Shown: in pieces, positions 31,428 to 52,384 of the stretch | Layout of the letters: the number at the start of each line of letters is the position of its first letter | Numbering within the stretch: position 1 is the first letter of the stretch | Source: an uncultured virus (IMG/VR IMGVR_UViG_3300021375_000010) | Taxonomy: Duplodnaviria; Heunggongvirae; Uroviricota; Caudoviricetes | Length of the DNA: 64,000 nt | Strand: one strand, 5' to 3' | Virus record (IMG/VR): IMGVR_UViG_3300021375_000010 | Made by a program: the position numbers and the translations under genes | Notes under the pieces: model-generated | The model's input: the letters and a program-made list of their open reading frames with translations, nothing else | The model's database searches: none | What the model was told of the DNA's origin: nothing

Positions 31428-33038
31428 ATGGCAGATGAAATTTATATAAACATTGGCTCTACGATACAACAACCGTATCAAGGACAAGCTATTGCAACTG
31501 GTACAGCACCAATCATAAGACAACGTATAGCTCGTCAGCCTGCCAATCAACAAGTACCCTTTACATATTCTAATAGAAGTCCATTCACCTATGCTAGACA
31601 GGGTCGAACGCCAGCACCATATAATCATCAAGTTCCTGCTACATATGTTGGACAAGGTAGACAACCCTCTACTTATGTAAATCAACAACCTAGTACGTAT
31701 AGAAATCCAGTGAATGGTCAACAACCATATATCGCTAGCGCTAGACAACCGAGTACGTATCAAAATCAGATTCAAACACCTTATATTGCTAATGCAAGGC
31801 AACCTAGTATCTATAACCTACAGGGTAATATTCCGTATCAGAATCCTGTTATTGCACAACAACCTTATCAAAACCAAGTTAATAAACAGATACCGTTTAC
31901 GTATACCAATCAAACAACGTATCAGTATACTGCTAATGCCCAGCAACCGTATCCGTACATTGCTAATGGACAATATGTAGCACAAACACAACAACCTTAT
32001 ACATATCCGTACATTGCAAATAGACAAAACACTGCTCAACAACCAGCGTCTTACAGACATCCTGTAATTGCAAATAGACAAACTACGATTGATAATGCTA
32101 ATCCTTCAATTGCAAGTAGACAAACAGCGGTGAATGCTACATATCAAGTTATTGCACAACAACCAGCAATACAAGAATACACATATCAAGCAAACGCCCA
32201 GGCGAGTGTGCAAGCTCAATCACCTTATATTGCTCAGGTGCAAGCTAATTATGGGTTTAGACAACCAGCATCATATCAGTTCACTACACAAGCAATTGCT
32301 CAAAGACCAGTGATATATACAGCGACTGGTAATTACCAAGCAAGTTATCAAACCCAATTACAACAACCTTACATATATCAACAACCAAATCAGGTTCCTG
32401 CTTCAGGACAAAACCAATTAGCAGTCTCATATAATTATCCCGACCCTATAATTGGAGAATATTTCCATGGTACAGGAAATTTCCAAAGTTATTCGTATGG
32501 GGGACTAGTCGGAACAGACCTATATGCCGCTATGGGTGCCCCACTTGGGACATACTATGCTCCAGCAGGTGTTGATGGTAATACTAACAGTGGTTCCCCT
32601 CAAAATGGCGCAACAGGTGCTTACTTACCGCCGACCGTTGGCGTACCCGCTCAGGCGCTAGCGGGTCAAGCGACACCAGGCGTATCACCAACTTGGAAGA
32701 CAACTCAAAGAATGGGTGGAACAATGCCTTGGACTGGATTGTACTCACATGACCCATCTGTGAATAATCATATACAATTAAAACCAAGTCAACCTATGAG
32801 ATTAAATGCTACTGGTCAGTGGAATAGGATAGAATATGCTTACTGGAGTTATAGCTCCAATACATGGAATCATATCGGTGGAATACCAGTAATATATATG
32901 CAAGCAGTCAATGTCCAAGGCCCAACTCAAGGAATATATGATATTCAAGGGGTGAATTGGATTGTTGGTGGAGGACTACCATCATCTGTTCAAGGTTACA
33001 CAGTATTGAATGCCCCTAAACGATTGAGGTTCTATTAA
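31428..33038 (+). CDS. Q/P/Y repeat protein A1 with C-terminal globular domain
   Basis: About 330 aa of degenerate QQPY/RQPSTY/PFTY units, then about 190 aa non-repetitive. Confidence 0.8.
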   Translation: MADEIYINIGSTIQQPYQGQAIATGTAPIIRQRIARQPANQQVPFTYSNRSPFTYARQGRTPAPYNHQVPATYVGQGRQPSTYVNQQPSTYRNPVNGQQPYIASARQPSTYQNQIQTPYIANARQPSIYNLQGNIPYQNPVIAQQPYQNQVNKQIPFTYTNQTTYQYTANAQQPYPYIANGQYVAQTQQPYTYPYIANRQNTAQQPASYRHPVIANRQTTIDNANPSIASRQTAVNATYQVIAQQPAIQEYTYQANAQASVQAQSPYIAQVQANYGFRQPASYQFTTQAIAQRPVIYTATGNYQASYQTQLQQPYIYQQPNQVPASGQNQLAVSYNYPDPIIGEYFHGTGNFQSYSYGGLVGTDLYAAMGAPLGTYYAPAGVDGNTNSGSPQNGATGAYLPPTVGVPAQALAGQATPGVSPTWKTTQRMGGTMPWTGLYSHDPSVNNHIQLKPSQPMRLNATGQWNRIEYAYWSYSSNTWNHIGGIPVIYMQAVNVQGPTQGIYDIQGVNWIVGGGLPSSVQGYTVLNAPKRLRFY

Positions 33039-33039
33039 G

Positions 33040-34158
33040 ATGGCTATAGGATTTACACAACAAAATAACCCTTTCACATTCCAACAAACGTTGAATGTGG
33101 AAACTGAAGGGCAAAGACCTGTACCTGCTATAGCACAACAACCAGCTACGTATTCATATCCTGCTATCGGACAGCAAGATTATCAGGTTACGTATCAACA
33201 CCCTGCTAGTTATAGGACACCTGTTATCGGTACTTACCCATATACTACAAATGCTCAAGCACAGACGACTTATCAGAGTCCATTTACATATTCTAGAACT
33301 GCACAAAAAGAAATACAGGTATCTATACAACAAAATGCTCCGTATATAAACCAACAACCTTCTACGTATCAGCTTCAGAGTCCGACTACTTCACAGCAAC
33401 CGTCTACTTATCAACATAGACAACCTGCTATATATCAAGTTGCATATCAACACCCGACAACGTATTCTAGACAAGGTGTTGCACAAACACAGGTGTCTTA
33501 TAGACATCCATTCACATATGCACGACAAGGACAAACCCCGTTTACATATACTAGAGAAGCTAGACAACCTTATATTGCTAATGCTAGACAACCTACTACA
33601 TACCCTGTAATATCAGATAGGAATTATAATCATCAACAACCAGCGATACAAACGTATCCATTTACTGCTGATGCACAGACACCGTTCACCTATCAACATA
33701 GACAACCTAGTACTGCAGTTGCTAATGCACAAACACCGTTTACGTATCAGAATAGGAGTCCATTTACATATAGGAATCCTGTAAATGCACAGACACCTTA
33801 CATTGCTAATGCACAGACACCTTACATTTTACAGAGGGCATATAACACCCCTGTTATTAGGATAACACAACAACCTTATCCGTATATTGCGAATGCACAA
33901 CAACCTTATATTGCTAATGCTAGACAACCCACTACATACCAAGTTACATATCAAGTTGCATACCAAGTACAGCAACCTTACATATACCAACAAGATTATA
34001 GTACAACTAGAAGTATTGGGCCGATCGCTAAAGTTAAAGGGATATATGTAAATGATGGAAACCAAATAAAGAAACTAGATAAAGTGTATGTCAATGATAG
34101 TGGCACTGTAGAGAAGATTCACCAATCTGTTCCAACTGCACAGTTTAGTAAAACATAA
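33040..34158 (+). CDS. Q/P/Y repeat protein B1 (mirror partner of A1)
   Basis: Same repeat units; C-terminal KVKGIYVNDG..LDKVYVNDSG motif. Confidence 0.8.
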   Translation: MAIGFTQQNNPFTFQQTLNVETEGQRPVPAIAQQPATYSYPAIGQQDYQVTYQHPASYRTPVIGTYPYTTNAQAQTTYQSPFTYSRTAQKEIQVSIQQNAPYINQQPSTYQLQSPTTSQQPSTYQHRQPAIYQVAYQHPTTYSRQGVAQTQVSYRHPFTYARQGQTPFTYTREARQPYIANARQPTTYPVISDRNYNHQQPAIQTYPFTADAQTPFTYQHRQPSTAVANAQTPFTYQNRSPFTYRNPVNAQTPYIANAQTPYILQRAYNTPVIRITQQPYPYIANAQQPYIANARQPTTYQVTYQVAYQVQQPYIYQQDYSTTRSIGPIAKVKGIYVNDGNQIKKLDKVYVNDSGTVEKIHQSVPTAQFSKT

Positions 34159-34176: not shown

Positions 34177-34509
34177 ATGGCCATAATTGCAAATATATTC
34201 ATAGACCAAGGCGCTGACTTTCAGATTACTGTTGACGTTACAGATGTTAACGGTGCAGTTTTGAATATGTCAGGGTATACTGCAACAGGACAAATTCGAA
34301 AAACTTATGAATCTAGTACAGTAGCAGCAACATTTACTTGTACTGTAACAGAGGCCTCAGGACAGGTCACTATGTCACTCACCGACGCTGTAACAGCAGC
34401 TATGAGTCCAGGCAGGTATGTTTATGACTTGGTCACAACTGATGGTAGTGGTCTCAAGACACGTGTTGTTGAGGGACAAGCTATAATTACGCCGGGAGTT
34501 ACAAGATGA
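34177..34509 (+). CDS. Virion structural/adaptor protein (Ig-like, BppU-like)
   Basis: NIFIDQGADF..GYTATGQIRK..GRYVYD..RVVEG...PGVT. Confidence 0.7.
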   Translation: MAIIANIFIDQGADFQITVDVTDVNGAVLNMSGYTATGQIRKTYESSTVAATFTCTVTEASGQVTMSLTDAVTAAMSPGRYVYDLVTTDGSGLKTRVVEGQAIITPGVTR

Positions 34510-34908: not shown

Positions 34909-36543
34909 ATGGCAACAGTAATTCAAATTAAAAGAAGTACAGGTGTTGCGGCTCCATCTACGAGTGATTTATCAGTAGGTGAGTTGGCATATGTACAAGA
35001 TAGAGCGAATTCAGGTGCTGGTGCGAAACTATATATCGAATCAGTAGACTCAGATAACTCTACTCCACTTATTCAAGCAATTGGTGGTAAATATTATACG
35101 GATATACTAGGTGGTTCAGCTGCAACGCCTGCTAACTTTAAAGTTGGTAATGGTGCAACTGCTGGTGCAAGTGTTCAGTTAATGGAAGACAGTGATAATG
35201 GAACGAACTTCGTTGCATTAAAAGCTGCTGACACATTGGGTGCTTCGACAACCTTTACTCTACCTACAGCAGACGGTTCTGCAAACCAAGTAATTGGTAC
35301 AGATGGTAGTGGAAACTTATCATTCTTATCAACAACATCAACACTAGCAGGTGCAACGGATTCAGATATTTCATCTCCAACAGGCGGACAAATGCTTGTT
35401 CATGATGGAAGTAATTCATTCGATAACGTATCAATGAGTGGTGATGCAACTATGGCATCTAGTGGTGCAGTAACAATCGGAAACGATAAAGTTACAACTG
35501 CTAAGATTCTAAACGCTAATGTAACAGTAGATAAGATTAACTTCTTAGTTGACGAAGATGACATGTCATCTGATTCAGCAGTCAAAGTTCCTTCTCAGCA
35601 ATCTGTTAAAGCATATGTAGATTCAAACATCACAGCACAGGACTTAGACCTTGCTGGTGACAGTGGAAGTGGTTCAGTCGACTTAGACTCTCAGTCAATC
35701 ACATTTACTGGTGGAACTGGTGTAACAACTTCTGTTTCAGGTCAAGCAGCGACTTTCGCTATTGGTCAGGCAGTTGCAACAACATCTAACGTAACTTTCA
35801 ACAACGTAGACGTTGATGGAACACTTACATCGGATGACATCACATCTACAAACATCGCTGCTTCAGGTAACCTAACAGTTTCAGGCAACTTGACAGTAAA
35901 CGGTACTACAACAACAGTTAACTCTACAACAGTAGAAATTGATGACCCTGTATTTGAAATCGGTGAAGGAACTTCAGACGATAACTTAGACAGAGGTATT
36001 AAATTTAACTGGCACAATGGTTCAGCTGCTAAGATTGGTTTCTTTGGTATGGACGATTCAGACGGTAAGTTTAAGTTCATCCAAGATGCAACAGATACAT
36101 CTTCAGTCTTCTCAGGAAGTGTTGGTGATGCAGAATTTGGTGCATTAACAGTTGGTAGTCTTTCAACAGGTGGTAACCTTTCAGGTGCTGGTCTTGCATT
36201 AAGTGGTTCAATCACTTCTGTAGACGGTGCGGCTCCTGCTGCTGGTGAGTTATTGGTTGGTAATGGTTCTAATGGAGACATGGAACTTGCAACTCTAACT
36301 GCTGGTGAAGGTATCGATGTAACTAATGCTGACGGTGCAATAACAATCGCTGCTGAAGATGCTACAACATCTAATAAAGGTATCGCAAGCTTTGCTTCTG
36401 CTATCTTTGATGTTTCAAGTGGTGCTGTATCTATTAAAGATGCAACAGCTTCAGTAAAAGGTATTGCTTCTTTTGCTTCAAGTAACTTTACAGTATCAAG
36501 TGGTGCGGTAACAGTTACTGCTATTGACGGCGGAACATTTTAA
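34909..36543 (+). CDS. Fibre protein (IQIKRS N-terminus, IDGGTF C-terminus)
   Basis: IQIKRS..P..L.VGELAY; GNLTVNGTTTTVNST; strong SD. Confidence 0.75.
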   Translation: MATVIQIKRSTGVAAPSTSDLSVGELAYVQDRANSGAGAKLYIESVDSDNSTPLIQAIGGKYYTDILGGSAATPANFKVGNGATAGASVQLMEDSDNGTNFVALKAADTLGASTTFTLPTADGSANQVIGTDGSGNLSFLSTTSTLAGATDSDISSPTGGQMLVHDGSNSFDNVSMSGDATMASSGAVTIGNDKVTTAKILNANVTVDKINFLVDEDDMSSDSAVKVPSQQSVKAYVDSNITAQDLDLAGDSGSGSVDLDSQSITFTGGTGVTTSVSGQAATFAIGQAVATTSNVTFNNVDVDGTLTSDDITSTNIAASGNLTVSGNLTVNGTTTTVNSTTVEIDDPVFEIGEGTSDDNLDRGIKFNWHNGSAAKIGFFGMDDSDGKFKFIQDATDTSSVFSGSVGDAEFGALTVGSLSTGGNLSGAGLALSGSITSVDGAAPAAGELLVGNGSNGDMELATLTAGEGIDVTNADGAITIAAEDATTSNKGIASFASAIFDVSSGAVSIKDATASVKGIASFASSNFTVSSGAVTVTAIDGGTF

Positions 36544-36581: not shown

Positions 36582-37406
36582 ATGGCAACAGTAATCCAAT
36601 TTAAAAGAAGTTCTACTCAGAACGCATTACCAGGCGTAAGTGACCTTGCACTTGGTGAATTAGCGGTAAACACTTACCACGGTAGGTTTTACACTGAGAA
36701 GAATGATGGTTCTGCTGCTGTTGTAGAAGTTGGGTCTAACCCGACTTCTCTTACTATCAATGATGCTTTAACATTCCCAACTGCAGACGGTACAAGTGGT
36801 CAGTTATTATCAACAAATGGAAGTGGAACTTTAGGTTTCGTAAATGCACCAAGCACTGGTGTTGTAACTTTCAAATATGATATAACTGGTAACACAACCG
36901 TAATTTCAGGTTCAGATGATAATGGTGTAACACTTGCTTACACTGTTGGACTAGAACAAGTCTATCTGAATGGTGTTAAATTAGTGAGTGGTGATGACTA
37001 TGCTACAACTAGTACTTCAGTTATCACATTACAGGCGAACGCTGTGGCGGGAGATGTATTACAAGTAGTTGCACAGACTTCAATATCAAACCTTGTACAA
37101 GGTTTCTTCACGACAGTTGCTTTAACAGCAACGACTGCTGACCAAGTATTGACTTCTAACGCAAAAGCAGTAATTGCAATTAAACATGTAATTGTTGCAA
37201 CACATGCTACTGGTGGTACTCACGCTGCTGAGGTTCTTTTAATCAATGACGGTACGAATGTATACTTCGTTCAGTATGGTGATGCATACTCAGGTTCATC
37301 TCTATTCACACTTTCTAGTGATATGAATAGTAACAACATGAGATTGCTGGTAACACCTGCTAATACGAATACTACATTCAAAACGTTCCAAATTAGAATG
37401 CAATAG
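36582..37406 (+). CDS. Fibre/structural protein
   Basis: IQFKRSS..L.LGELAVN; VYLNGVKL..DY; C-terminal HDG..QYG-like domain. Confidence 0.72.
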   Translation: MATVIQFKRSSTQNALPGVSDLALGELAVNTYHGRFYTEKNDGSAAVVEVGSNPTSLTINDALTFPTADGTSGQLLSTNGSGTLGFVNAPSTGVVTFKYDITGNTTVISGSDDNGVTLAYTVGLEQVYLNGVKLVSGDDYATTSTSVITLQANAVAGDVLQVVAQTSISNLVQGFFTTVALTATTADQVLTSNAKAVIAIKHVIVATHATGGTHAAEVLLINDGTNVYFVQYGDAYSGSSLFTLSSDMNSNNMRLLVTPANTNTTFKTFQIRMQ

Positions 37407-41555: not shown

Positions 41556-43763
41556 ATGGCATCAGGTTCACAGAAGGTAAAAACACCGCAGGGCTGGAAT
41601 TCTACCCAAGGTGCTTGGGTTAAAACAGGTTCATCCACATGGAAAGCGGTAGACCAAATTTATGTTAAGACACCTACAGGGTGGAATAATGCATCGGGTC
41701 AACAGTCTGTACAACAACCTTACCCATACATTGCTAATAGTCAGACCCCATATATTGCGAATGCACAGCAACCGTATCCTTACATTGCTAATGCACAGAC
41801 GCCTTATATCGCTAACGCTCAGCAACCGTATCCGTACATTGCCAATAATCAGACACCTTACATTGCAAATGCACAACAACCGTATCCTTATATAGCGGAT
41901 AGTCAAACCCCATTTACGTATCAGAATAGGAGTCCATTTACATATAGGAATCCTGTAAATGCACAGACACCATTTACGTATCAGAACAGGACACCATTTA
42001 CATATAGGAACCCAGTTAACGCTCAAACGCCTTATATCGCTAACGCTCAGCAACCGTATCCTTACATTGCTAATAGTCAGACCCCATATATTGCGGATGC
42101 TCAACAACCGTATCCTTACATTGCTAATAGTCAAACACCATATATTGCGAATGCACAGCAACCGTATCCGTACATTGCTAATGCTCAATCGCCTTATATT
42201 GCTAACGCTAGACAACCTGCTATTTATCAGAATCCATCAAGTTCACAGACACCTTACATTGCTCAGGCAAGACAACCTGCTGGATATAGAAACCCTGTTT
42301 CTGCACAACAACCATATATCGCTAACGCTAGACAACCATTTACATATAGAAACCCTGTAAATGCTCAATCGCCTTATATTGCGAATGCACAGCAACCGTA
42401 TCCTTACATTGCTAATAGTCAAACGCCTTATATTGCGAATGCACAGCAACCGTATCCATATATTGCTAACAGTCAGACTCCATACATTGCGAATGCTAGA
42501 CAACCTAGTACGTATAGAAACCCAGTAAATGCACAGACACCTTACATTGCGAATGCTCAACAACCATATCCGTATATAGCAAATAGTCAAAGTCCTTATA
42601 TTGCAAATGCTCAGCAACCGTATCCATATATTGCTAATGCTCAAACGCCTTATATTGCTAACGCTAGACAACCAAACACATACGCCCGACAAGGTAGAAC
42701 ACCGTTTACGTATCAAAACAGGTCTCCATTTACATATAGGAGTCCAGTAAACGGACAACAACCATTTACGTACCAAAACAGGTCTCCATTTACATACAGA
42801 AATCCTGTAGGATACCAAGTACCGTTTACGTATCAAAATAGGTCACCGTTTACTTACAGAAACCCTGTAGGTTATCGAGTACCGTTTACATACCAAAACA
42901 GACAACCAAGTACGTATAGAAACCCAGTGAATGGACAGCAACCTTACATTGCTAATGCAAGGCAACCTGCTGGATATAGAAATCCAGTATCAGCACAGCA
43001 ACCATATATTGCTAACGCTAGATACCCTGCTAACGCTCAGAGTCCTAGTAACGCTCAGTCGCCGTTTACTTACAACGCAAGATACCCTGCTAACGCTCAG
43101 AGTCCTAGTAACGCTCAGTCGCCGTTTACTTACAATGCTAGGTATCCTGCTAATGCTCAGTCACCAAGTAACTCACAAACACCGTTTACTTACAACGCAA
43201 GATACCCTGCTAGCGCTCAGTCACCAAGTAACTCTCAAACACCGTTTACTTACAATGCTAGGTATCCAGCGATTTATACTGCTAATGCTAGAGCATCTGT
43301 GAGTTCAAGAACTCCTGGCACCTATCCATACAGGGCACCTGTTGGTTATTGGGAATCTAGTACTAATTATGTTCAAAGTTATCAGATGGGATATGCTGAG
43401 GGAGTGGGTAAATATTCAGCCTTCGGTGCCGCCTTGGGAACTTATCAGTCATCACTTGGTTCTTTACAGCAGTTTGGTATTGTTACTGGTTCTCAATCGC
43501 CATTTTACTCTGTCATTGCATACCAAAATTCTTCTAGCGCACCTACAACGTTTTTCATTGGTGGTACAAATTCACTACCAATTGGGCCGCTTAGTCAAAT
43601 TGTGACTCAGTGGACTAGAGGTTATTATCCATCACCTTTCTCTCTGCCATTCCAGTACATGCAGTTCTCACAAGGTAGATGGTATATACAAGGTAGAAAT
43701 ATGATAAGAGAAAACAGTCCTGCCGGTGTTTACGGGGCTCTTAGAATAAGTGTAACAAAATAG
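41556..43763 (+). CDS. Q/P/Y repeat protein A2: N-terminal W/YVK motif, 526-aa repeat tract, C-terminal globular domain
   Basis: 28 long (10/12 aa) and 27 short (8 aa) alternating units, aa 53-578. Confidence 0.85.
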   Translation: MASGSQKVKTPQGWNSTQGAWVKTGSSTWKAVDQIYVKTPTGWNNASGQQSVQQPYPYIANSQTPYIANAQQPYPYIANAQTPYIANAQQPYPYIANNQTPYIANAQQPYPYIADSQTPFTYQNRSPFTYRNPVNAQTPFTYQNRTPFTYRNPVNAQTPYIANAQQPYPYIANSQTPYIADAQQPYPYIANSQTPYIANAQQPYPYIANAQSPYIANARQPAIYQNPSSSQTPYIAQARQPAGYRNPVSAQQPYIANARQPFTYRNPVNAQSPYIANAQQPYPYIANSQTPYIANAQQPYPYIANSQTPYIANARQPSTYRNPVNAQTPYIANAQQPYPYIANSQSPYIANAQQPYPYIANAQTPYIANARQPNTYARQGRTPFTYQNRSPFTYRSPVNGQQPFTYQNRSPFTYRNPVGYQVPFTYQNRSPFTYRNPVGYRVPFTYQNRQPSTYRNPVNGQQPYIANARQPAGYRNPVSAQQPYIANARYPANAQSPSNAQSPFTYNARYPANAQSPSNAQSPFTYNARYPANAQSPSNSQTPFTYNARYPASAQSPSNSQTPFTYNARYPAIYTANARASVSSRTPGTYPYRAPVGYWESSTNYVQSYQMGYAEGVGKYSAFGAALGTYQSSLGSLQQFGIVTGSQSPFYSVIAYQNSSSAPTTFFIGGTNSLPIGPLSQIVTQWTRGYYPSPFSLPFQYMQFSQGRWYIQGRNMIRENSPAGVYGALRISVTK
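41712..43289 (+). repeat. Coding repeat tract of A2 (24/30/36-nt units)
   Basis: Parsed from the translation; many near-identical DNA units. Confidence 0.9.
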
Positions 43764-43774
43764 GAATTAGAAAT

Positions 43775-44035
43775 ATGGCATTATATGAAACAACAATAAC
43801 AAACCCCGATGGAAGTACTGAAATTGCTTTAAATAAAGATTTCGTATTCTCTGATATTGGTGGAGATGTAACTTGTACACAAACAGGATTTAAAGCAGCA
43901 TACACAGTAGGAGACAATACGGACTTAGTACAAGCTGAGGCGGATATCGATTCTTGTATTGCAAACAACTTGGAAGTTTGGGCTTGGCAGAAGTATTACC
44001 AAAACCCTCTGAATCCAAGTGAACTAAGAGAATAA
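43775..44035 (+). CDS. 86-aa hypothetical protein between the paired repeat genes
   Basis: AGGA SD; tightly packed in the operon. Confidence 0.7.
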   Translation: MALYETTITNPDGSTEIALNKDFVFSDIGGDVTCTQTGFKAAYTVGDNTDLVQAEADIDSCIANNLEVWAWQKYYQNPLNPSELRE

Positions 44036-44047
44036 TAGGAAAAAGAC

Positions 44048-45727
44048 ATGGCACAAGGCAGTTATCAGGTTCCGTCCATTGCACAACAACCGTTCACGTA
44101 CAGCGCATCGTATCGTGTGCCATACATTGCTAACGCAAGACAGCCTGGCACCTATAGGAACCCATTTACGTATCGTGTGCCTTATATTGCTAACGCAAGA
44201 CAGCCTGGCACCTATAGGAACCCATTTACGTATCGTGTGCCTTATATTGCGAATGCTAGACAACCTAGTACATATCGTAACCCATTCACGTATCGTGTGC
44301 CTTATATTGCGAATGCTAGACAACCTAGTACATATCGTAACCCATTCACATATAGGGTTCCGTTCACATACCAAAACAGGTCTCCATTTACATATAGGAA
44401 CCCTGTAAGTTATCGTGTGCCATTTACTTATAATAATAGACAACCATTTACATATAGAAACCCTGTAAATGCTCAATCGCCTTATATTGCTAACGCTAGA
44501 CAACCTGCTGGTTACAGAAACCCTGTTTCAGGACAACAACCATATATCGCTAACGCTAGACAACCTGCTGGTTACAGAAATCCAGTATCAGCACAGCAAC
44601 CATATATTGCTAACGCAAGAAACCCATTCACATATAGGAACCCTGTAAACGGTCAACAACCGTACATTGCAAGTGCTCAACAACCGTATCCATATATTGC
44701 GAACAGTCAAACACCGTTCACGTATCAAAATAGGCAACCTAGTACATATGCTAGACAGGGTAGAACACCGTTCACATACCAAAATAGACAGCCTGGTACA
44801 TATGCTAGACAAGGTCAAACACCATTTACATACAGTAATAGACAACCTAGTACGTATAGAAACCCAGTAAATGCTCAAACACCATTTACATACAGTAATA
44901 GACAACCTGGCACATATGCTAGACAAGGTCAAACGCCATTTACGTATCAGAACAGACAGCCTGGCACATATGCACGACAAGGACAAACTCCTTTCACGTA
45001 CCAAAATAGACAACCGAGTACGTATAGAAACCCAGTGAATGGTCAATCGCCATTTACGTATCAGAACAGGTCTCCGTTTACATATAGAAACCCTGTAGGT
45101 TATCAAGTACCATTTACATACAGTAATAGACAACCTGCTATCTATGGAAACCCTGTAAGTTATCAGATACCATTTACGTATCAGAACAGACAACCTAGTA
45201 CATATGCTAGACAAGGTCAAACGCCATTTACGTACCAAAATAGACAACCTGGCACGTATGCTAGACAAGGTCAGACACCATTTACATACAGTAATAGACA
45301 ACCTGGCACATATGCTAGACAAGGTCAAACGCCATTTACGTACCAAAATAGACAACCTAGTACGTATAGAAACCCAGTGAATGGACAACAACCATATATC
45401 GCTAACGCTAGACAACCTAGTACGTATAGAAACCCAGTGAATGGTCAACAACCATATATCGCTAACGCTAGACAACCTGGCACATATGCTAGACAGGGTA
45501 GAACACCGTTCACTTATCAAAATAGACAACCTGGCACATATGCACGACAAGGACAAACTCCTTTCACGTATCAACACAGACAACCTTCAACATATAGTAG
45601 ACAAGGTAGAACACCGTTCACTTATCAGAACAGACAACCTTCAACATATGCTAGACAAGGTAGAACACCTGTTATACGTTGGGATGGTAACTTGTCACAA
45701 CAGTGGCCTGCTGCTGATATAAGTTAA
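44048..45727 (+). CDS. Q/P/Y repeat protein B2 (mirror partner of A2)
   Basis: 12 aa + 526-aa repeat tract + 21 aa = 559 aa. Confidence 0.85.
   Translation: MAQGSYQVPSIAQQPFTYSASYRVPYIANARQPGTYRNPFTYRVPYIANARQPGTYRNPFTYRVPYIANARQPSTYRNPFTYRVPYIANARQPSTYRNPFTYRVPFTYQNRSPFTYRNPVSYRVPFTYNNRQPFTYRNPVNAQSPYIANARQPAGYRNPVSGQQPYIANARQPAGYRNPVSAQQPYIANARNPFTYRNPVNGQQPYIASAQQPYPYIANSQTPFTYQNRQPSTYARQGRTPFTYQNRQPGTYARQGQTPFTYSNRQPSTYRNPVNAQTPFTYSNRQPGTYARQGQTPFTYQNRQPGTYARQGQTPFTYQNRQPSTYRNPVNGQSPFTYQNRSPFTYRNPVGYQVPFTYSNRQPAIYGNPVSYQIPFTYQNRQPSTYARQGQTPFTYQNRQPGTYARQGQTPFTYSNRQPGTYARQGQTPFTYQNRQPSTYRNPVNGQQPYIANARQPSTYRNPVNGQQPYIANARQPGTYARQGRTPFTYQNRQPGTYARQGQTPFTYQHRQPSTYSRQGRTPFTYQNRQPSTYARQGRTPVIRWDGNLSQQWPAADIS
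44084..45661 (+). repeat. Coding repeat tract of B2
   Basis: 28 long and 27 short units in reverse length order relative to A2. Confidence 0.9.
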
Positions 45728-45778: not shown

Positions 45779-47374
45779 ATGGAAAAAATAACAACACTTG
45801 ATGCACTACTTCTAAAATTAGAAGAAACCCCTATACCAACTGAAGAACTCAAAACCTATGGTCATGCTCAGAGACATCTATTACCCCAATATCATTTAGG
45901 GTCTACTAATATTGATGAGATTGATAAAGACAGCGAGTTCTATAAAGTCTTATCATACTTTTTTGATAATGTTATGCCTCCCCTACGACTTCTTAAGTGG
46001 TCAGACCTTGATACACTGAGAAGAAAGAAAGAGATTACGACCTTTAATGGATTACAATTTCAGTGTAATGCATATCACAAATTCATGCCAGATATTTACA
46101 CTTCAGGAATCCAACCCGAAGGTGAAACAAACATAACAACAAAATTCCAAGTTGCCACTGTTGATGATGAAGTGCAAAAAATTCAAGACTACTGTGGTGA
46201 AGCAACCGACCCACGTGACTTTTATTCAGAAGATTTTGACATGTCTATGAATTCAATGTATTATCATAGTGCGAAAGCTCATTGGATTACACAAAGTATT
46301 AGAGAGGAGGGATTGTGGGCTCCTATTCAAGGATATACTCAATCTCCTAACGGTACTAATTTCACACAACTTATGATACATCCAGGCAGTGTACGTTCAG
46401 GTGTATTTGAAGAGATGGAAGACCCAACACATGAACTTTTGATATGGGATTTCCAAGATACATTCCCCGACATTCCAGCAATGTCCATAGACGATTCTTT
46501 GAATTACTGGAAAGAAACCATCCTCAATGGTAATACAAAATGCAATCATAAAAACTTGAGTGTTATATTTACTAATGGTACACTTGAATATCAATCCGAC
46601 CATTCCAATATAGAATTTAGAAGAGAAGTTTGGAAACATAGTAAGAAGTTTACAGAACTTTCTGCTGGAAAACCTCTAACAATTTATATTGGTTATGACC
46701 CTAGACACAATAATCTAGAGTTGTACTCCAAGCAATCTATATTAGATGCAGTGAAGAGAAGTGTTGGTGGTGGGAGATTTGTTGATTACACTAGGTTTAC
46801 GCCAGAAATTAAAATACTTGACATTTCAAAGATACCCGAGTACACTAGAGAGTATGCAAATCAATCTACTGAATTTACATACAGTAGATTCTTAATACCG
46901 TATCTTGAGAACTATGAAGGGTTTAGTATGTTTGTAGATGATGACTTCATCTTTAATAAAAACCCTATGCCTATGTTCTATTACCTAGGTCAAGATGATG
47001 CAGTAGCATGTATCAAGTATCCACAAATTAAACATGATGAAACCAAGTTTGATGGAGAAGTTAATATAGATTATCCATGTAAACTATGGTCATCTATGAT
47101 GTTCTTCAATAACAGTCATCCCGACTGTAAGAAGTTGACACCCGAAGTGGTTAACACTTGGACAGGTGCCCAATTACATCAATTCGAATGGACTGATAAG
47201 ATTGCTCCCATCCCCGAGAAGTATGTGTTCGTTGAGGGATATGATGACCCCGAGGTTAAGTGGGATTTCTCTGCTGTTCACTATACAAGAGGTGGGCCAT
47301 GGATAAATGGGATGGATACAGGACACATAAATAATTTAGAACACTACAACAAAGTTAAAAACAGCTTGTTGTGA
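45779..47374 (+). CDS. Glycosyltransferase (GT-A fold, GT8/CDI-like) with an extra N-terminal domain
   Basis: IYIGYDPR; STEFTYSRFLIPYL; FVDDDF (DxD); WSSMMFFN; HYTRGGPW. Confidence 0.85.
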   Translation: MEKITTLDALLLKLEETPIPTEELKTYGHAQRHLLPQYHLGSTNIDEIDKDSEFYKVLSYFFDNVMPPLRLLKWSDLDTLRRKKEITTFNGLQFQCNAYHKFMPDIYTSGIQPEGETNITTKFQVATVDDEVQKIQDYCGEATDPRDFYSEDFDMSMNSMYYHSAKAHWITQSIREEGLWAPIQGYTQSPNGTNFTQLMIHPGSVRSGVFEEMEDPTHELLIWDFQDTFPDIPAMSIDDSLNYWKETILNGNTKCNHKNLSVIFTNGTLEYQSDHSNIEFRREVWKHSKKFTELSAGKPLTIYIGYDPRHNNLELYSKQSILDAVKRSVGGGRFVDYTRFTPEIKILDISKIPEYTREYANQSTEFTYSRFLIPYLENYEGFSMFVDDDFIFNKNPMPMFYYLGQDDAVACIKYPQIKHDETKFDGEVNIDYPCKLWSSMMFFNNSHPDCKKLTPEVVNTWTGAQLHQFEWTDKIAPIPEKYVFVEGYDDPEVKWDFSAVHYTRGGPWINGMDTGHINNLEHYNKVKNSLL

Positions 47375-47394
47375 TAACAATCTTATGATATAAT
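47366..47394 (+). promoter_or_regulatory. Sigma70-like (extended -10) promoter
   Basis: TTGTTG-N17-TATAAT with TGn before the -10 box, then a GGAG/AAGGA SD. Confidence 0.55.
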
Positions 47395-47412
47395 GGAGAA
47401 AAAGGATATATT

Positions 47413-48003
47413 ATGAATGCACTAATTTACACAGAAAACAATGAACTTATGATTACTAAACCTAATGGTTTGCATTATAAGTTTGATAATGTCGACAAAC
47501 CCGAATTGGGATTTGATTATGATGTTCTAGTCTACGCTGAAGAAGAACTTAAGATTCTAAACTGGGATGTCCAAAAAGAATTCCCAGACCAAGAACAAAT
47601 TCCTTTAAGTGCGGATGAAAAGGACGCTGTCGAAACTTACATTAAAAATTCAGAACCACCTATGGGTGTCACCTTAAATGGTCAATACATTGAACAACTA
47701 GCTTATATGTGTAATAAGAATGTTGAAGCATGTGCTGGCGGATTTAATTTTTCTGATATAGCAGAGGTTGTCTATGTTGGCAGAGAAGGTTCCAACCATC
47801 CTTACAGGTCTAATGCTAGACGTGTTATGGAGTATGCTGATGCATTATGGCACATCTTTGACCAAGTCATGAATGAGATTGTAGGAACTAGAGAAGATAC
47901 TCTTAGAGATTTTGCTAGTTATGTGGAACAACTACCACAACCACAATCAATTCCCGAAACAGATAATCACCAATTTCAAAAGGATACAAAAATTGGCGGT
48001 TAA
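47413..48003 (+). CDS. Hypothetical protein
   Basis: 196-aa ORF with SD; no family recognised. Confidence 0.7.
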   Translation: MNALIYTENNELMITKPNGLHYKFDNVDKPELGFDYDVLVYAEEELKILNWDVQKEFPDQEQIPLSADEKDAVETYIKNSEPPMGVTLNGQYIEQLAYMCNKNVEACAGGFNFSDIAEVVYVGREGSNHPYRSNARRVMEYADALWHIFDQVMNEIVGTREDTLRDFASYVEQLPQPQSIPETDNHQFQKDTKIGG

Positions 48004-48772
48004 TTTAAATCCAAAGGTTGTTCATATTGATAAACCTTTTAAGATTCAAGACCTACCTTTACAAGATATCTATGTATTAGATGATTGGCTCAGTGTTGAT
48101 TTATTTCATCACTATGCAAATGTCCATCTAAGGACTTATAGTGAATGGTCTAAAACAAATGAAGTTCAGAGCGATAGTGCTACTGGATTCCCCCATCATA
48201 GTTTTTGGGGTGCAACTTACTTTAGAGGAGCATTTCAAGAGGATGGCAGACTAGGTAAAGGTAATTTGGTTCTTGAGAGAGGGTCAGACCCATTGAATGC
48301 CGTGTTTGCTAGATATATAGATAGCAGACTGAGAACTGAATTTGGATTTAAATGGGAGAAATTTCAATACATGGGATTGAACTCTCAAACACAAGGACTA
48401 GATGGGACAACACATTCTGATTGCGCTCAAGATGAAGATTGGAATATATCGTTCTTATATTATTGTAGCCCTGTATGGTATCCATCATGGGGTGGAGATT
48501 TGAGAATTTATGATACTATGCAATTTGGACTTGATGGGAGAGAAGACCACGTCAAGAATCACCAAGTTGCTTCTGTAGAATATAAACCAAATAGATTATT
48601 AATGTTTGATGGAAGAATACCACATGGTGCGGATGCACCTACATCAAAAGCACGATACATGGACAGACGTTCCATAGTATTAAGAGGTGATGAAGTATCA
48701 CTTACACATGAAGGAGAAGAATATCATGCCAATGATAGAATTTCACAGTTACAGCTCAGAGACCCTCGCTGA
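47993..48772 (+). CDS. 2OG-Fe(II) oxygenase (prolyl-hydroxylase-like)
   Basis: HSD motif, W..SWGGDL, YKPNRLLMFDG.IPH, R.SIV; probable TTG start after AAGGA (track start 47912). Confidence 0.82.
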   Translation: MAVNLNPKVVHIDKPFKIQDLPLQDIYVLDDWLSVDLFHHYANVHLRTYSEWSKTNEVQSDSATGFPHHSFWGATYFRGAFQEDGRLGKGNLVLERGSDPLNAVFARYIDSRLRTEFGFKWEKFQYMGLNSQTQGLDGTTHSDCAQDEDWNISFLYYCSPVWYPSWGGDLRIYDTMQFGLDGREDHVKNHQVASVEYKPNRLLMFDGRIPHGADAPTSKARYMDRRSIVLRGDEVSLTHEGEEYHANDRISQLQLRDPR

Positions 48773-49637
48773 TTTTAAACCAGTATTAGCAAAGAGTATT
48801 TTACCCGAGTGGTGGAAGAAAACTAAGGTAGCGGAGTTTACTCAAGCCAGAACACAACAAACTATTCGTGCTTGTCCAGCAATGGATGATTGGTTAAAGA
48901 GCGGATGGATTATTGTTGCTAATAGAGACATTCATGTTATAAATGGTGATAGTATCACAGATAGTGGTACCAATAAAGTATTTACTTGGGATGGTAAAGA
49001 TGCTGGAACCCATTCAATGTCTCATCCTAAAGAACAAGTTAGAGAATCTTTTGAATACTATGGTAGCGGTGACGGTAAAGCTCCTATAAAAGATGCATTT
49101 AAATTTAGAAATCCGTGGAACATAAAAACTCCGCCAGGCTATTCATGCTTCTACTTAGACCCATTCTTATTTCAGAATAAATACTTTGCATGTTGGCAGG
49201 GTATTATTGATACTGATACATTTAATGTTGGTCTAGACAATGCACAGATAATTTTTTATCCTAAAGTCGACCATTCATTTGTTATACCAAAAGGAACCCC
49301 TCTTTGTCAGATTATACCGTTTAAGAGAGAAGAGTGGCATGCTTCATTTGAAATAAAATCACATGAACACTGGCAAGAAACTAAAGGAAGAGGGTATAAG
49401 ATAGACCCACATGACAGTTCTACTGAGACGGTTTTATCAATGCAAGAATGGGGTCATAAAGCGCCATTTGAAGGGAAGGATGGCATTAGAGATTTGGGCC
49501 CGTATAGAAATAAAGGTTATTGGGTGCCTAAAGCTAGACTATTTAAAAATGATAATCCCCCACCCGAATGCCCTATGCACATAAGTGAAGAACAAGAACC
49601 TACTGAGGTTCAACTGGAGTTAGACTTTAATGATTAG
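48726..49637 (+). CDS. Conserved phage protein (ACPAM...PW.IKTPPGYS family, possibly dUTPase-like fold)
   Basis: TIRACPAMDD..GW; FKFRNPWNIKTPPGYSC; GIIDTD; KGTPLCQIIPFKRE. Confidence 0.7.
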   Translation: MPMIEFHSYSSETLADFKPVLAKSILPEWWKKTKVAEFTQARTQQTIRACPAMDDWLKSGWIIVANRDIHVINGDSITDSGTNKVFTWDGKDAGTHSMSHPKEQVRESFEYYGSGDGKAPIKDAFKFRNPWNIKTPPGYSCFYLDPFLFQNKYFACWQGIIDTDTFNVGLDNAQIIFYPKVDHSFVIPKGTPLCQIIPFKREEWHASFEIKSHEHWQETKGRGYKIDPHDSSTETVLSMQEWGHKAPFEGKDGIRDLGPYRNKGYWVPKARLFKNDNPPPECPMHISEEQEPTEVQLELDFND

Positions 49638-50373
49638 ATATTTATTCCCAACCGTTATCTTTCAAAGAAACATGACATGTCCGACACAGATGGGGGATGA
49701 CCTCGTTCTAGATGATGAATACATGAAGATGCTGAAAGATGAGATGGATGCTATGCGTAGACGTGATGGTGTTGGTAGACAAGTTTCAAATGCTTATACT
49801 GGATGGCAGTCTAACGATGGTGTAGACAATAATCCAACGTTCCAAAAATTGATGAATCGAATTAGTACAGTATTCTACCAAGAGGTTTGGAATTACTTTG
49901 GGATTGACCCAACAAAAACAGCATTTCAAATGGGTAACTGTTGGGCAAATATAAATGATAAAACTGCATGGAACAGACCACACTTACATAATGGTTGTTG
50001 GTATAGTGGCGTCTTCTATATCCATGCTGATGGTGACGAAGGAGATTTTGTTGCTATTAATACAGACCCTAAAGTTGTTTCTGATATGCCAAACTCCAAT
50101 AGACACCAAGAGTCATGGGACTTCAAACCAAGAACAGGGGAATTGATTTTATTCCCTAGTGGTATGATGCATATGGTAGCACCAAACTTGACAGACAAAG
50201 ACAGATATTCAATATCATTCAACTCAGCATTTCAAATTAAAGACTATGATGCTTATAGAAATAATTTCGCTACAGGTTGGCATCCCGATGAGAATACATT
50301 CGGTTTAGATGAAAATGGTATGTTACAAAAGTATCAATATGAACCTATTGACTGGGAAAAAGAGCAGGGTTGA
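49630..50373 (+). CDS. Putative 2OG-Fe(II) oxygenase (TIGR02466-like)
   Basis: LFPT; WANIN..N.PHLH..SGVFYI; GELILFPS..HMV.PN....RYSISFN. Confidence 0.85.
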   Translation: MIRYLFPTVIFQRNMTCPTQMGDDLVLDDEYMKMLKDEMDAMRRRDGVGRQVSNAYTGWQSNDGVDNNPTFQKLMNRISTVFYQEVWNYFGIDPTKTAFQMGNCWANINDKTAWNRPHLHNGCWYSGVFYIHADGDEGDFVAINTDPKVVSDMPNSNRHQESWDFKPRTGELILFPSGMMHMVAPNLTDKDRYSISFNSAFQIKDYDAYRNNFATGWHPDENTFGLDENGMLQKYQYEPIDWEKEQG

Positions 50374-51529: not shown

Positions 51530-52384
51530 ATGCCAACAAACGTATTTTTTAACCATGCAGTACAGACTGAACAACACCTATACGAAGATTTGGTTGTTGA
51601 GTCATTACGTATGTATGGTAATGAGACGTACTATCTACCAAGAGAAATTGTAGAGGAAGACGCTATACTTGGTGAAGATGTACAGTCTAAATTTGGAGAT
51701 GCATATTCTGTAGAAATGTATTTAGAAAATACAGAAGGATATGAGGGAGAAGGAGACCTTATGTCCAAGTTTGGTATACAAGTAAGAGACCAAGCAACCT
51801 TTGTTCTTTCTTTAAGAACGTGGGAAAGATTTATATCACTAGACTCTAACCTTGCAACATCATTAAGACCAAACGAAGGAGACTTGATTTACTTCCCACT
51901 TAGTGGTTCTATGTTTGAAATCAAATTTGTAGAACACGAAAATCCTTTCTATCAAGTTGGAAAACTATTTGTATTTAAATTACAATGTGAACTCTTTGAA
52001 TACAGTGGAGAAGATTTTGATGTTGGTGGTGCTGTCGACTTAATTGAAACTGAAAACGCCTACACAATAGATATGATTCTACAAGCAGATGGTACTGGAA
52101 ACTACACACGTGGTGAGAATGTTACCCTTGGTGGTGCAGTTGTGGGTGAAGTTGTTGGTTGGGTTCCTACCACTAGAGAACTGAATATCAAAGATAACAC
52201 TACAGCGATTGCTGTTGGTAATACACTCATAGGTGTAGACTCAGGAGCAGAATATATTGTTTATAGTATTGAAGATGTTTTAAACTTCTCTTATGATAAG
52301 TCTGCACAAAACAAAGACTTTGAAACAAAAGCAGATGGATACTTAGACTTCTCAGAGACAAACCCATTCGGTGAGGTTACATAA
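51530..52384 (+). CDS. gp14: Neck protein gp14
   Basis: EQ.LYEDLVVES; RPNEGDLIYFP..FEIKFVEHE.PFYQ.GK; NPFGE. Confidence 0.93.
   Translation: MPTNVFFNHAVQTEQHLYEDLVVESLRMYGNETYYLPREIVEEDAILGEDVQSKFGDAYSVEMYLENTEGYEGEGDLMSKFGIQVRDQATFVLSLRTWERFISLDSNLATSLRPNEGDLIYFPLSGSMFEIKFVEHENPFYQVGKLFVFKLQCELFEYSGEDFDVGGAVDLIETENAYTIDMILQADGTGNYTRGENVTLGGAVVGEVVGWVPTTRELNIKDNTTAIAVGNTLIGVDSGAEYIVYSIEDVLNFSYDKSAQNKDFETKADGYLDFSETNPFGEVT

Follow-up and report, generated by a model that had tools for sequence, protein, structure and literature searches.

Introduction

At the tip of the T4 long tail fibre, gp37 forms a needle that passages of structural reports describe as elongated, six-stranded and antiparallel (PMC7291167), with seven iron atoms bound to His residues (PMC6957217). 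By analogy, this needle appears to be the closest known object to the shaft that we propose here for A2 and B2, the products of two neighbouring genes in a 64,000-nucleotide stretch of DNA (the window) from an uncultured virus (IMG/VR record IMGVR_UViG_3300021375_000010). Each protein carries a long repeat tract. We found that the tract of B2 is an exact mirror-image complement of that of A2, that this mirror code extends to single residues, and that it is conserved among relatives, in which the two partners co-vary.

The proposed shaft would share with gp37 a base-tip-base topology with the receptor-binding part at the turn. Single-chain relatives of a second pair in the window, A1/B1, would have a one-chain fold-back layout, as gp37 does. 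However, gp37 is one polypeptide, whereas the up and down strands of the A/B shaft would be supplied by two genes. In contrast to the iron-His needle, the A2 and B2 tracts together contain one His in 1,052 residues (in the B2 unit QTPFTYQH) and no HxH motif. The gp37 needle is also short, whereas the paired part of A and B proteins extends over 144-516 residues per chain and has an explicit residue pairing code. There was no sequence or Pfam relation between gp37 and A2 or B2, and neither a gp37-type nor a related fibre family was matched.

Lengthwise pairing by knobs-into-holes packing, with partner and register set by sequence, is likewise seen in leucine zippers and in the antiparallel coiled-coil arms of SMC and Rad50, and fold-back coiled-coil arms have irregularities at mirrored positions. 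These systems are built from alpha-helical heptads, whereas the A2 and B2 tracts have a Pro every 4-10 residues and a two-residue periodicity, which excludes helices and indicates extended strands. The triple beta-spiral and beta-helix shafts of adenovirus fibre, reovirus sigma1, T4 gp5C and gp12 are also repetitive, beta-rich and punctuated by Pro or Gly, but they are parallel homotrimers of identical repeats. A single gene with uniform repeats (about 15 amino acids (aa), or 8 aa of the form VxGxxxxx) is sufficient there and no mirrored second gene is needed; in the A2/B2 family, by contrast, the units are 4-12 aa long and aperiodic and are found in two genes in mirrored order. A structure neighbour of B2 in the Atlas was a gp5 C-terminal-type cluster (template modelling (TM) scores 0.64/0.79), which is below the bar for naming a family. 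Collagen-like fibres consist of Gly-X-Y triplets, whereas the units of A2 and B2 have no Gly-X-Y run and are all of even length. The two-protein, chain-like fibres of phage A1002, in which passages of the report describe dimers docked on a rope protein, also differ from A/B (PMC13730344). An exact-string literature search found five motif strings in no paper of the library searched, word searches returned nothing on such a fibre, and we could not find a description of an amino-acid pairing code of this kind. An earlier note on this DNA, made from the letters alone, had likewise known of no phage appendage built in this way.

Mirrored order of repeat units in A2 and B2

A script parse resolved each tract into 526 aa, in which 28 long units of 10 or 12 residues alternate with 27 eight-residue units (coordinates are given in Table 1). 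The long-unit lengths follow the order 10x4, 12x2, 10x3, 12x3, 10x2, 12, 10x3, 12x9, 10 in A2 and exactly the reverse order in B2, and only 10 of the 28 positions agree when the two orders are read in parallel. The length assigned to the last unit of A2 is ambiguous, which leaves the mirror of the other 27 unaffected. When the tracts are aligned antiparallel, all 27 short units face a unit of the opposite class (YIA versus FTY). The long units are matched by type as well. Eleven QQPYPYIAxx units of A2 lie opposite RQPxTY(A/S)RQG units of B2, and the lone RQPNTYARQG of A2 lies opposite the lone QQPYPYIANS of B2. In all four of its cases RQPAGYRNPVS(A/G) has RSPFTYRNPV(G/S)Y as its partner, the four RYPA(N/S)AQSPSNx units are each paired with one of four RQP(G/S)TYRNPFTY units, and two RQPAIY units face each other.

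The probability of obtaining the length order alone by chance is 1/C(28,13) = 2.7e-8, and that of the short-unit class order alone is 1/C(27,10) = 1.2e-7. The antiparallel alignment gives 55 matches in 55 units, compared with 21/55 for the parallel alignment. This score was reached in none of 200,000 shuffles (maximum 43), and in 5 of 200,000 when the run lengths of B2 were kept. The tract lengths, unit counts, reversed length order, opposite short-unit classes and finer pairings had all been pointed out in the earlier note. The script parse reproduced each of them, and the mirror order was also borne out by the permutation test.

The coding strand is the same for A2 and B2, as are the skews. 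A blastn comparison of their DNA gave 369 plus/plus high-scoring segment pairs and only two minus-strand matches, of 10-11 nt, which is the level expected by chance. There is therefore no inverted DNA repeat, as the note had stated, and the relation holds between the proteins and not between the DNA strands.

Database searches gave little for these proteins. Pfam gave no match above cut-off for A2, B2, A1, B1 or the small open reading frame (ORF) between A2 and B2, and PHROGs gave no useful match for the same five, the only hit of B2 being phrog_4041 (unknown function) over 25 residues. A PDB sequence search returned nothing for the A2 N-terminal domain, the A2 C-domain or the tracts, and the Atlas had no feature match at 0.9 or above. 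No family, solved structure or Atlas cluster accounts for the tracts or for the A2 tip domain.

A single antiparallel residue register

One antiparallel register at the level of residues explains all of the unit types. The mutual information (MI) between facing residues of A2 and B2 was 1.873 bits at d=+3, compared with 1.549 bits at the next best shift and 1.013 bits at the best of 161 parallel shifts. None of the 526 facing pairs at d=+3 is aromatic-aromatic. In the 175 pairs with an aromatic residue, the partner is Ala (90), Val (26), Asn (22), Gly (19), Arg (12), Ser (5) or His (1). Pro is opposite Arg or Gln in 151 pairs, and Asn is opposite Thr in 55. When the family of related pairs described below was pooled, a sharp optimum was again found at d=+3 (MI 1.605 bits versus 1.235 at the next shift), with one aromatic-aromatic pair in 10,656 and with A, G or S opposite the aromatic in 2,467 of the 3,586 aromatic-containing pairs.

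The same preferences are visible within each unit length. Among 590 matched pairs of 8-mers from 40 patterns, a small residue (A/G/S at Pro+3) is opposite Tyr/Phe in 490, Arg (in NIR units) or another out-of-class residue is opposite Tyr/Phe in 88, eight pairs are small-small and none is aromatic-aromatic. For 6-mers, 331 of 409 matched pairs are small-aromatic, and all 223 pairs of 10-mers combine a PYPY-type with an xTY..G-type unit. The MI matrices have peaks at positions (4,6), (5,5) and (6,4) for 6-mers and at (4,8), (6,6) and (8,4) for 8-mers. These peaks lie on k+m = unit length + 4 in both cases, as one continuous antiparallel register predicts. A different scheme, a Pro-anchored code operating unit by unit, would argue against a continuous ribbon; it was refuted by the MI matrices and the shift scan.

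Unit length is even in 2,783 of 2,785 Pro-anchored tract units. In an antiparallel ladder, facing residues share a face, and facing pairs alternate between hydrogen-bonded and non-bonded sites. Units of exclusively even length would thus place the Tyr/Phe-Ala pairs on one face and the Pro-Arg/Gln pairs on the other, and Pro would occupy the same type of ladder site from one end of the tract to the other. Since the order of the units is aperiodic, only one register satisfies all pairs, and the sequence would therefore set both the register and the length.

Conservation and co-variation among related loci

A scan of IMG/VR gave 346 related stretches that were confirmed, and we retained 77 loci from them. 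An adjacent A-then-B pair is present in 72 of these, the other five being cut by contig ends or having one member only. The loci comprise 54 distinct pairs with 40 distinct unit-length patterns of 21-70 units, and tract lengths among relatives range from about 144 to 516 aa. In a wider search of 1.84 billion representatives, the family was of modest size, with 128 clusters at 50% identity (E <= 1e-3), and the 128 representative matches included no natural fusion joining the A2 N-terminus to the B2 C-terminus.

We scored the mirror as the fraction of units matched by a mirror partner of the same length, using one offset per pair. The median was 0.90 for cognate pairs and 0.33 for 1,560 non-cognate combinations (99th percentile 0.71), and for 35 of 40 A proteins the best match was their own B. 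In parallel order, the family pairs score about 0.3-0.6. The unit numbers of A and B are correlated with r = 0.96 over 14-71 units. A case of co-variation comes from the comparison of the window with the 93% identical locus L001, in which the A block [10,8,10] is replaced by [12] at long units 13-14 and the same change is found in B at long units 15-16, the exact mirror partners. The mirrored order is thus a property of the family, as the 40 patterns and their median score indicate, and a compensating indel at mirrored positions, for which the earlier note had proposed to check homologous loci, does occur.

These data bear on the possibility that each protein folds alone, for example as a solenoid or a homotrimer, and that the mirror is a by-product of how the repeats arose or recombined. 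A and B are indeed paralogues with common unit types (plus-strand similarity of up to 81% over 249 nt), and the Atlas model of B2 (predicted local distance difference test (pLDDT) 0.59) resembles long beta-rich repeat proteins with TM scores of 0.5-0.8, a likeness that can serve as a lead only. However, there is no inverted DNA repeat, and we know of no duplication mechanism that would, within one strand, reverse the unit order and turn each unit into the opposite class. The mirror also persists through 40 patterns and a compensating indel, and the parallel alignment scores far lower. We consider independent folding extremely unlikely.

A second pair and single-chain relatives

The window encodes a second, degenerate pair, A1/B1. 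Nineteen unit boundaries of A1 and B1 coincide at one offset, compared with a maximum of 11 in parallel, and none of 5,000 shuffles reached 19. The optimum is again d=+3 (MI 1.22 bits versus 0.86), where none of 322 facing pairs is aromatic-aromatic and where there are 58 Pro-Arg/Gln pairs, compared with at most 28 at other shifts.

Database searches also returned single-chain proteins of 445-645 aa (e.g. P0130, P0056, P0131, P0132, P0133 and P0136) that begin like A1 (MADEIYIN...QQPYQG) and end like B1 (...IGPxAKVKxxxVN...KIH). We detected an internal mirror in 24 of 41 such proteins (a self-mirror score reached by at most 5 of 500 shuffles), and nearly all of the 24 are symmetric about a point at 0.44-0.46 of the length. 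The matched units of P0130 obey the code (FTY versus YIA, 10b versus 10a, NIR versus xIY), with 1 of 3,000 shuffles reaching its score. When 14 single-chain proteins were pooled, d=+3 was the best shift and gave 429 Pro-Arg/Gln pairs compared with at most 225 elsewhere, with a small MI margin (0.43 versus 0.40). By their sequences these proteins look like an unsplit form of the pair. Taken together with A1/B1, they indicate that the same object occurs in two forms, one a hairpin of a single chain folded back on itself and the other divided between two genes.

A domain with the beta-hairpin-like motif (I/V)YV(K/N)...G is found at the N-terminus of A2 (41556-41711) and at the C-terminus of B1 (33980-34158). 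Judged from this motif, the putative base domain is on opposite chains in the A2/B2 and A1/B1 pairs.

An alternative in which A and B are not in mutual contact, each lying in opposite orientation on a third, aperiodic template, should be considered here. A rope protein that docks other fibre proteins is described in passages of the A1002 report (PMC13730344), and several long fibre-like proteins are encoded near A2 and B2. Nevertheless, what relates A to B is complementarity and not likeness: aromatic residues do not face each other and Pro faces Arg/Gln, as direct contact predicts. Moreover, tract length varies from about 144 to 516 aa, the loci revealed no third partner that co-varies with A and B, and in the single-chain forms the rule is obeyed inside a single protein. 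We therefore give this alternative very little weight.

Proposed structure of the A/B shaft

From the mirror, the register and their co-variation, we consider it likely that the A2 and B2 chains pair antiparallel in one register. In this model, A2 and B2 would together build a long hetero-oligomeric shaft, each forming one of its two strands, and the shaft would probably be a virion fibre. The chains would run side by side in opposite directions, in one register over all 526 tract residues, each Tyr/Phe facing Ala, Val, Gly or Asn, each Pro facing Arg/Gln, and Asn facing Thr. The simplest structure that fits would be a two-stranded antiparallel beta-ribbon. Such a ribbon would be amphipathic and would be likely to coil or bundle, for example as three ribbons (A3B3) that bury the aromatic face. 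The N-terminus of A and the C-terminus of B would lie together at the base, where the fibre would be attached, and the variable C-terminal domain of A would form the distal tip together with the N-terminus of B. Given the gene order A - tip - B, the whole distal part would be encoded in one contiguous stretch of DNA, and distal modules, that is tips with matched shaft segments, might be exchanged as cassettes. Binding of A to B, stoichiometry, location in the virion and a role in host recognition are thus what we infer from sequence patterns.

The earlier note had proposed a long antiparallel beta-ribbon with knob-into-hole pairing. Its antiparallel, in-register part has gained support from the 40 mirrored variants, the compensating indel, the single register, A1/B1 and the single-chain forms. 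The ribbon geometry fits the register and the even unit lengths (2783/2785), and the beta conformation itself we infer. The length of 175 nm given in the note is arithmetic for a straight ribbon, and a coiled or bundled ribbon would be shorter.

Several observations weigh against the model. A bare two-stranded ribbon of ~170 nm with an exposed aromatic face is physically doubtful, so that the model requires some packing of higher order. Because the related pairs are kin, the counts given above are not independent events. Five A proteins do not rank their own B first (L041, L043, L056, L057 pair 0 and L062); contig ends truncate L041, L056 and L057 pair 0, and L043 has a mirror score of only 0.51. 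L063 ranks its own B first but with a mirror score of only 0.53. Among the single-chain proteins, 17 of 41 lack a significant self-mirror, and the unit code of these forms is loose, with 24 aromatic-aromatic versus 45 aromatic-small combinations among matched units; by the boundary test, the self-mirror was not significant in P0092, P0129 and P0134. No relatives of A2 or B2 were found by megablast and tblastn among 50,697 GenBank phage records, a set in which this genome or a very close one may be missing, and no cultured phage has them. Structure prediction was also of no help. AlphaFold2 gave an unusable model for A2 (14-row alignment, mean pLDDT 32.9), with four short strands of low confidence in the N-terminal domain. 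For the single-chain P0132 (44-row alignment, mean pLDDT 42.3) the model was likewise unusable, and only the small C-terminal domain reached pLDDT 65-79. A complex prediction for the L074 pair (A of 251 aa and B of 202 aa, 1:1, 10-row alignments, run without controls) gave an interaction prediction score from aligned errors (ipSAE) of 0.00 in both runs, which speaks neither for nor against pairing.

A broader interpretation, to which we attach about as much belief as doubt, is that A/B pairing is a protein analogue of nucleic-acid complementarity: an antiparallel, residue-by-residue code, which occurs in one- or two-gene form and evolves by compensating indels and by swaps of the contiguous DNA for the distal hairpin. 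The two-residue parity and the aperiodic unit order would make the register unique over more than 500 residues, and relatives with a Gly-Cys-Hint end may undergo processing of the tip or even its covalent closure onto B. If the chains do pair as their sequences suggest, A/B would be a natural protein duplex of the beta type whose partner, register and length can be read from a simple sequence code, and would represent a new design principle for viral fibres as well as a template for programmable protein filaments of set length. It would also explain how very abundant uncultured marine T4-like phages build and diversify part of their host-recognition apparatus, with a conserved base, a shaft of changeable length and an exchangeable tip. 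The dozens of pairs with compensating indels would in addition provide a clean natural data set of inter-protein co-variation.

Proposed fibre ends and tip domains, and the small ORF

In alignments of relatives, the N-terminus of A (about 50 aa, with invariant columns M1..Q49) and the C-terminus of B (RTPVIRWD..L..WP) are near-invariant, whereas the C-terminus of A is highly variable and takes three forms. In the first, found in many relatives, the tract is followed by poly-Gly and a short tail and there is no tip domain. In the second, poly-Gly-Cys precedes a Hint module, and B starts 1-16 nt past the stop codon of A. In the third, A ends in a globular domain of 115-170 aa, of which there are several unrelated kinds. 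Conservation at the base combined with variation at the tip is consistent with an attachment fibre, and this comparison supports the placement of the A2 C-domain at the distal tip that the earlier note had proposed. For the A2 C-domain itself, no relative was found in GenBank phages, in PDB sequences or in a 5.8-billion-protein set (proteins of 404-1287 aa).

The Hint assignment rests on Pfam matches in L065 (PF01079, Hint, 32.0 bits, cut-off 29.7; Vint 28.5, cut-off 27), L070 (Vint 32.5, Hint 31.4) and L021 (Hint 31.1). Further A loci of this type are L040, L043, L046, L051, L053, L063, L068 and L073, and A2 of the window has no Hint domain according to Pfam. These A proteins have a GGGC-F start to the module and a VHN end followed by a few residues, the residue after the Asn not being a nucleophile. 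This suggests predicted autoprocessing at the fibre tip in Hint-bearing relatives; ligation of such an A protein to B is speculation.

All 12 distinct A-B gaps longer than 150 nt hold an ORF of 86-100 aa. They occur at loci whose A has a globular C-domain (43775-44035 in the window, and L001, L007, L008, L013, L018, L031, L037, L044, L047, L049 and L057), and the gap is absent in the short and Hint forms. These ORFs have a weak common 'TVG..VD' motif, and by analogy the small protein could possibly be a chaperone or cofactor of the tip.

Table 1. Coordinates of the A2/B2 locus, of other features of the window, and of Hint-bearing A genes in related loci.
Feature	Coordinates	Strand	Basis or remark
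DUF4815 giant protein	21953-28726		Pfam/PHROG annotation
A1, degenerate A-type protein, 536 aa, own C-terminal domain	31428..33038	+	ORF; mirror with B1
B1, partner of A1, 372 aa, C-terminal beta-hairpin-like domain	33040..34158	+	Boundary and register tests
LtfC-like ORF, 110 aa, directly after B1	34177-34509		Pfam PF23926 (LtfC-like beta-sandwich) 32 bits, cut-off 27
A2	41556..43763	+	735-aa ORF
A2 N-terminal conserved domain (aa 1-52), proposed fibre base end	41556..41711	+	Near-invariant in relatives
A2 repeat tract (aa 53-578)	41712..43289	+	Script parse; Tandem Repeats Finder (TRF) arrays
A2 C-terminal globular domain (aa 579-735) and stop, proposed distal tip	43290..43763	+	Variable position in relatives
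Small ORF between A2 and B2, 86 aa	43775..44035	+	
B2	44048..45727	+	559-aa ORF
B2 N-terminus (aa 1-12), proposed tip end of B	44048..44083	+	Conserved M-[AP]-[IQ]-G start motif
B2 repeat tract (aa 13-538), mirror complement of A2 tract	44084..45661	+	Unit mirror and residue register
B2 C-terminal conserved tail (RTPVIRWDGNLSQQWP...) and stop, proposed base end	45662..45727	+	Invariant columns R..W..D..L..W..P
Five-gene cassette directly 3' of B2	45779..50373	+	Order conserved in relatives
T4_neck-protein	51530-52384		143 bits
Hint-bearing A gene, L065	1788-3017		
Hint-bearing A gene, L070	5073-6368		
Hint-bearing A gene, L021	5095-7020		

Long open frames are also present on the minus strand opposite both tracts, at 41631-42836 and 44024-45583 (e.g. 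331 aa at 44588-45583). In all likelihood they arise from the codon periodicity of the repeats and are not genes.

Genomic setting and downstream cassette

The IMG/VR record of the source virus has 120,692 bases and an estimated completeness of 67%. According to PHROG and Pfam matches, the window is the structural region of an uncultured T4-like myovirus. It starts with baseplate hub and wedge genes, a 2,257-aa DUF4815 protein and a fibre-like block; these are followed by genes for the T4 neck protein, sheath stabiliser, terminase, sheath, portal, scaffold and major capsid protein. In its capsid protein the virus shares 68% identity with Methylophilales phage Melnitz and 65% with Pelagibacter phage HTVC008M.

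Matches to fibre-type PHROGs lie between the DUF4815 giant, a domain that we take as a marker of VrlC, and the T4 neck protein. The A2/B2 locus, with the giant upstream, the neck gene downstream and fibre genes around it, fits the position of the variable "host recognition cluster" of pelagimyophages and cyanomyophages, which is located between a giant VrlC-type gene and the neck gene gp14 and contains tail fibres and enzymes, non-structural genes included (PMC7029224, Zaragoza-Solas et al. 2020). In the passages of that study on the pelagimyophage cluster, neither such repeat proteins nor a mirror relation is described.

Directly after B2 lies a cassette of five genes, which encode a 531-aa unknown protein, a 196-aa unknown protein, a 2-oxoglutarate (2OG)-Fe(II) oxygenase, a 316-aa unknown protein and a second 2OG-Fe(II) oxygenase, with the neck genes next. 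The oxygenases were matched by Pfam families PF13640 (35.7 bits) and PF13759 (69.8 bits), and the 531-aa protein had no Pfam or PDB match. Every one of the 70 loci that extend 5 kb or more past B has the complete cassette with its genes in this order. Because all loci belong to one phage group, the conserved gene order is not enough to tie the enzymes to the fibre. The Pro/Asn/Arg-rich tracts may be modified by the cassette enzymes.

The setting also bears on whether the A/B pair, if formed as proposed, is a receptor-binding tail fibre at all. The product might instead serve as a ruler or scaffold in assembly, decorate the head or collar, act as a whisker, or be a non-virion protein directed at the host surface. 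Such a role would be in keeping with the many relatives that have poly-Gly and a short tail in place of a tip domain, with the conserved enzyme cassette directly after the pair, and with the non-structural genes reported in passages on the host recognition cluster (PMC7029224). However, the pair is found among genes with tail-fibre PHROG matches, and an LtfC-like assembly domain follows B1; the ORF that encodes it also matches a PHROG named L-shaped tail fibre assembly. In tail fibre assembly systems, a fibre gene is followed by the gene for its chaperone, and the conserved base, variable tip and small ORF of the A/B loci resemble such an arrangement by analogy. We thus regard a function other than that of a tail fibre as unlikely.

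No match to the A2 N-terminus was found by tblastn in the cultured members HTVC008M, Melnitz and Mosig. Near-identical DNA was found in 15 public sequencing runs at no less than half of the sampled words, and the 20 runs with near-identical DNA belong to 13 studies, which sampled sea water and related habitats. RNA libraries contain it too (28 of 30 bins in X12), as contigs that are possibly derived from DNA. The many joints in the run contigs are what repeats and related strains give in short-read assemblies.

Two neighbouring fibre-like proteins of the window, encoded at 34909-36543 and 36582-37406, have a common N-terminal start, MATVIQ(I/F)KRS, as if several fibres docked through one shared N-terminal adaptor.

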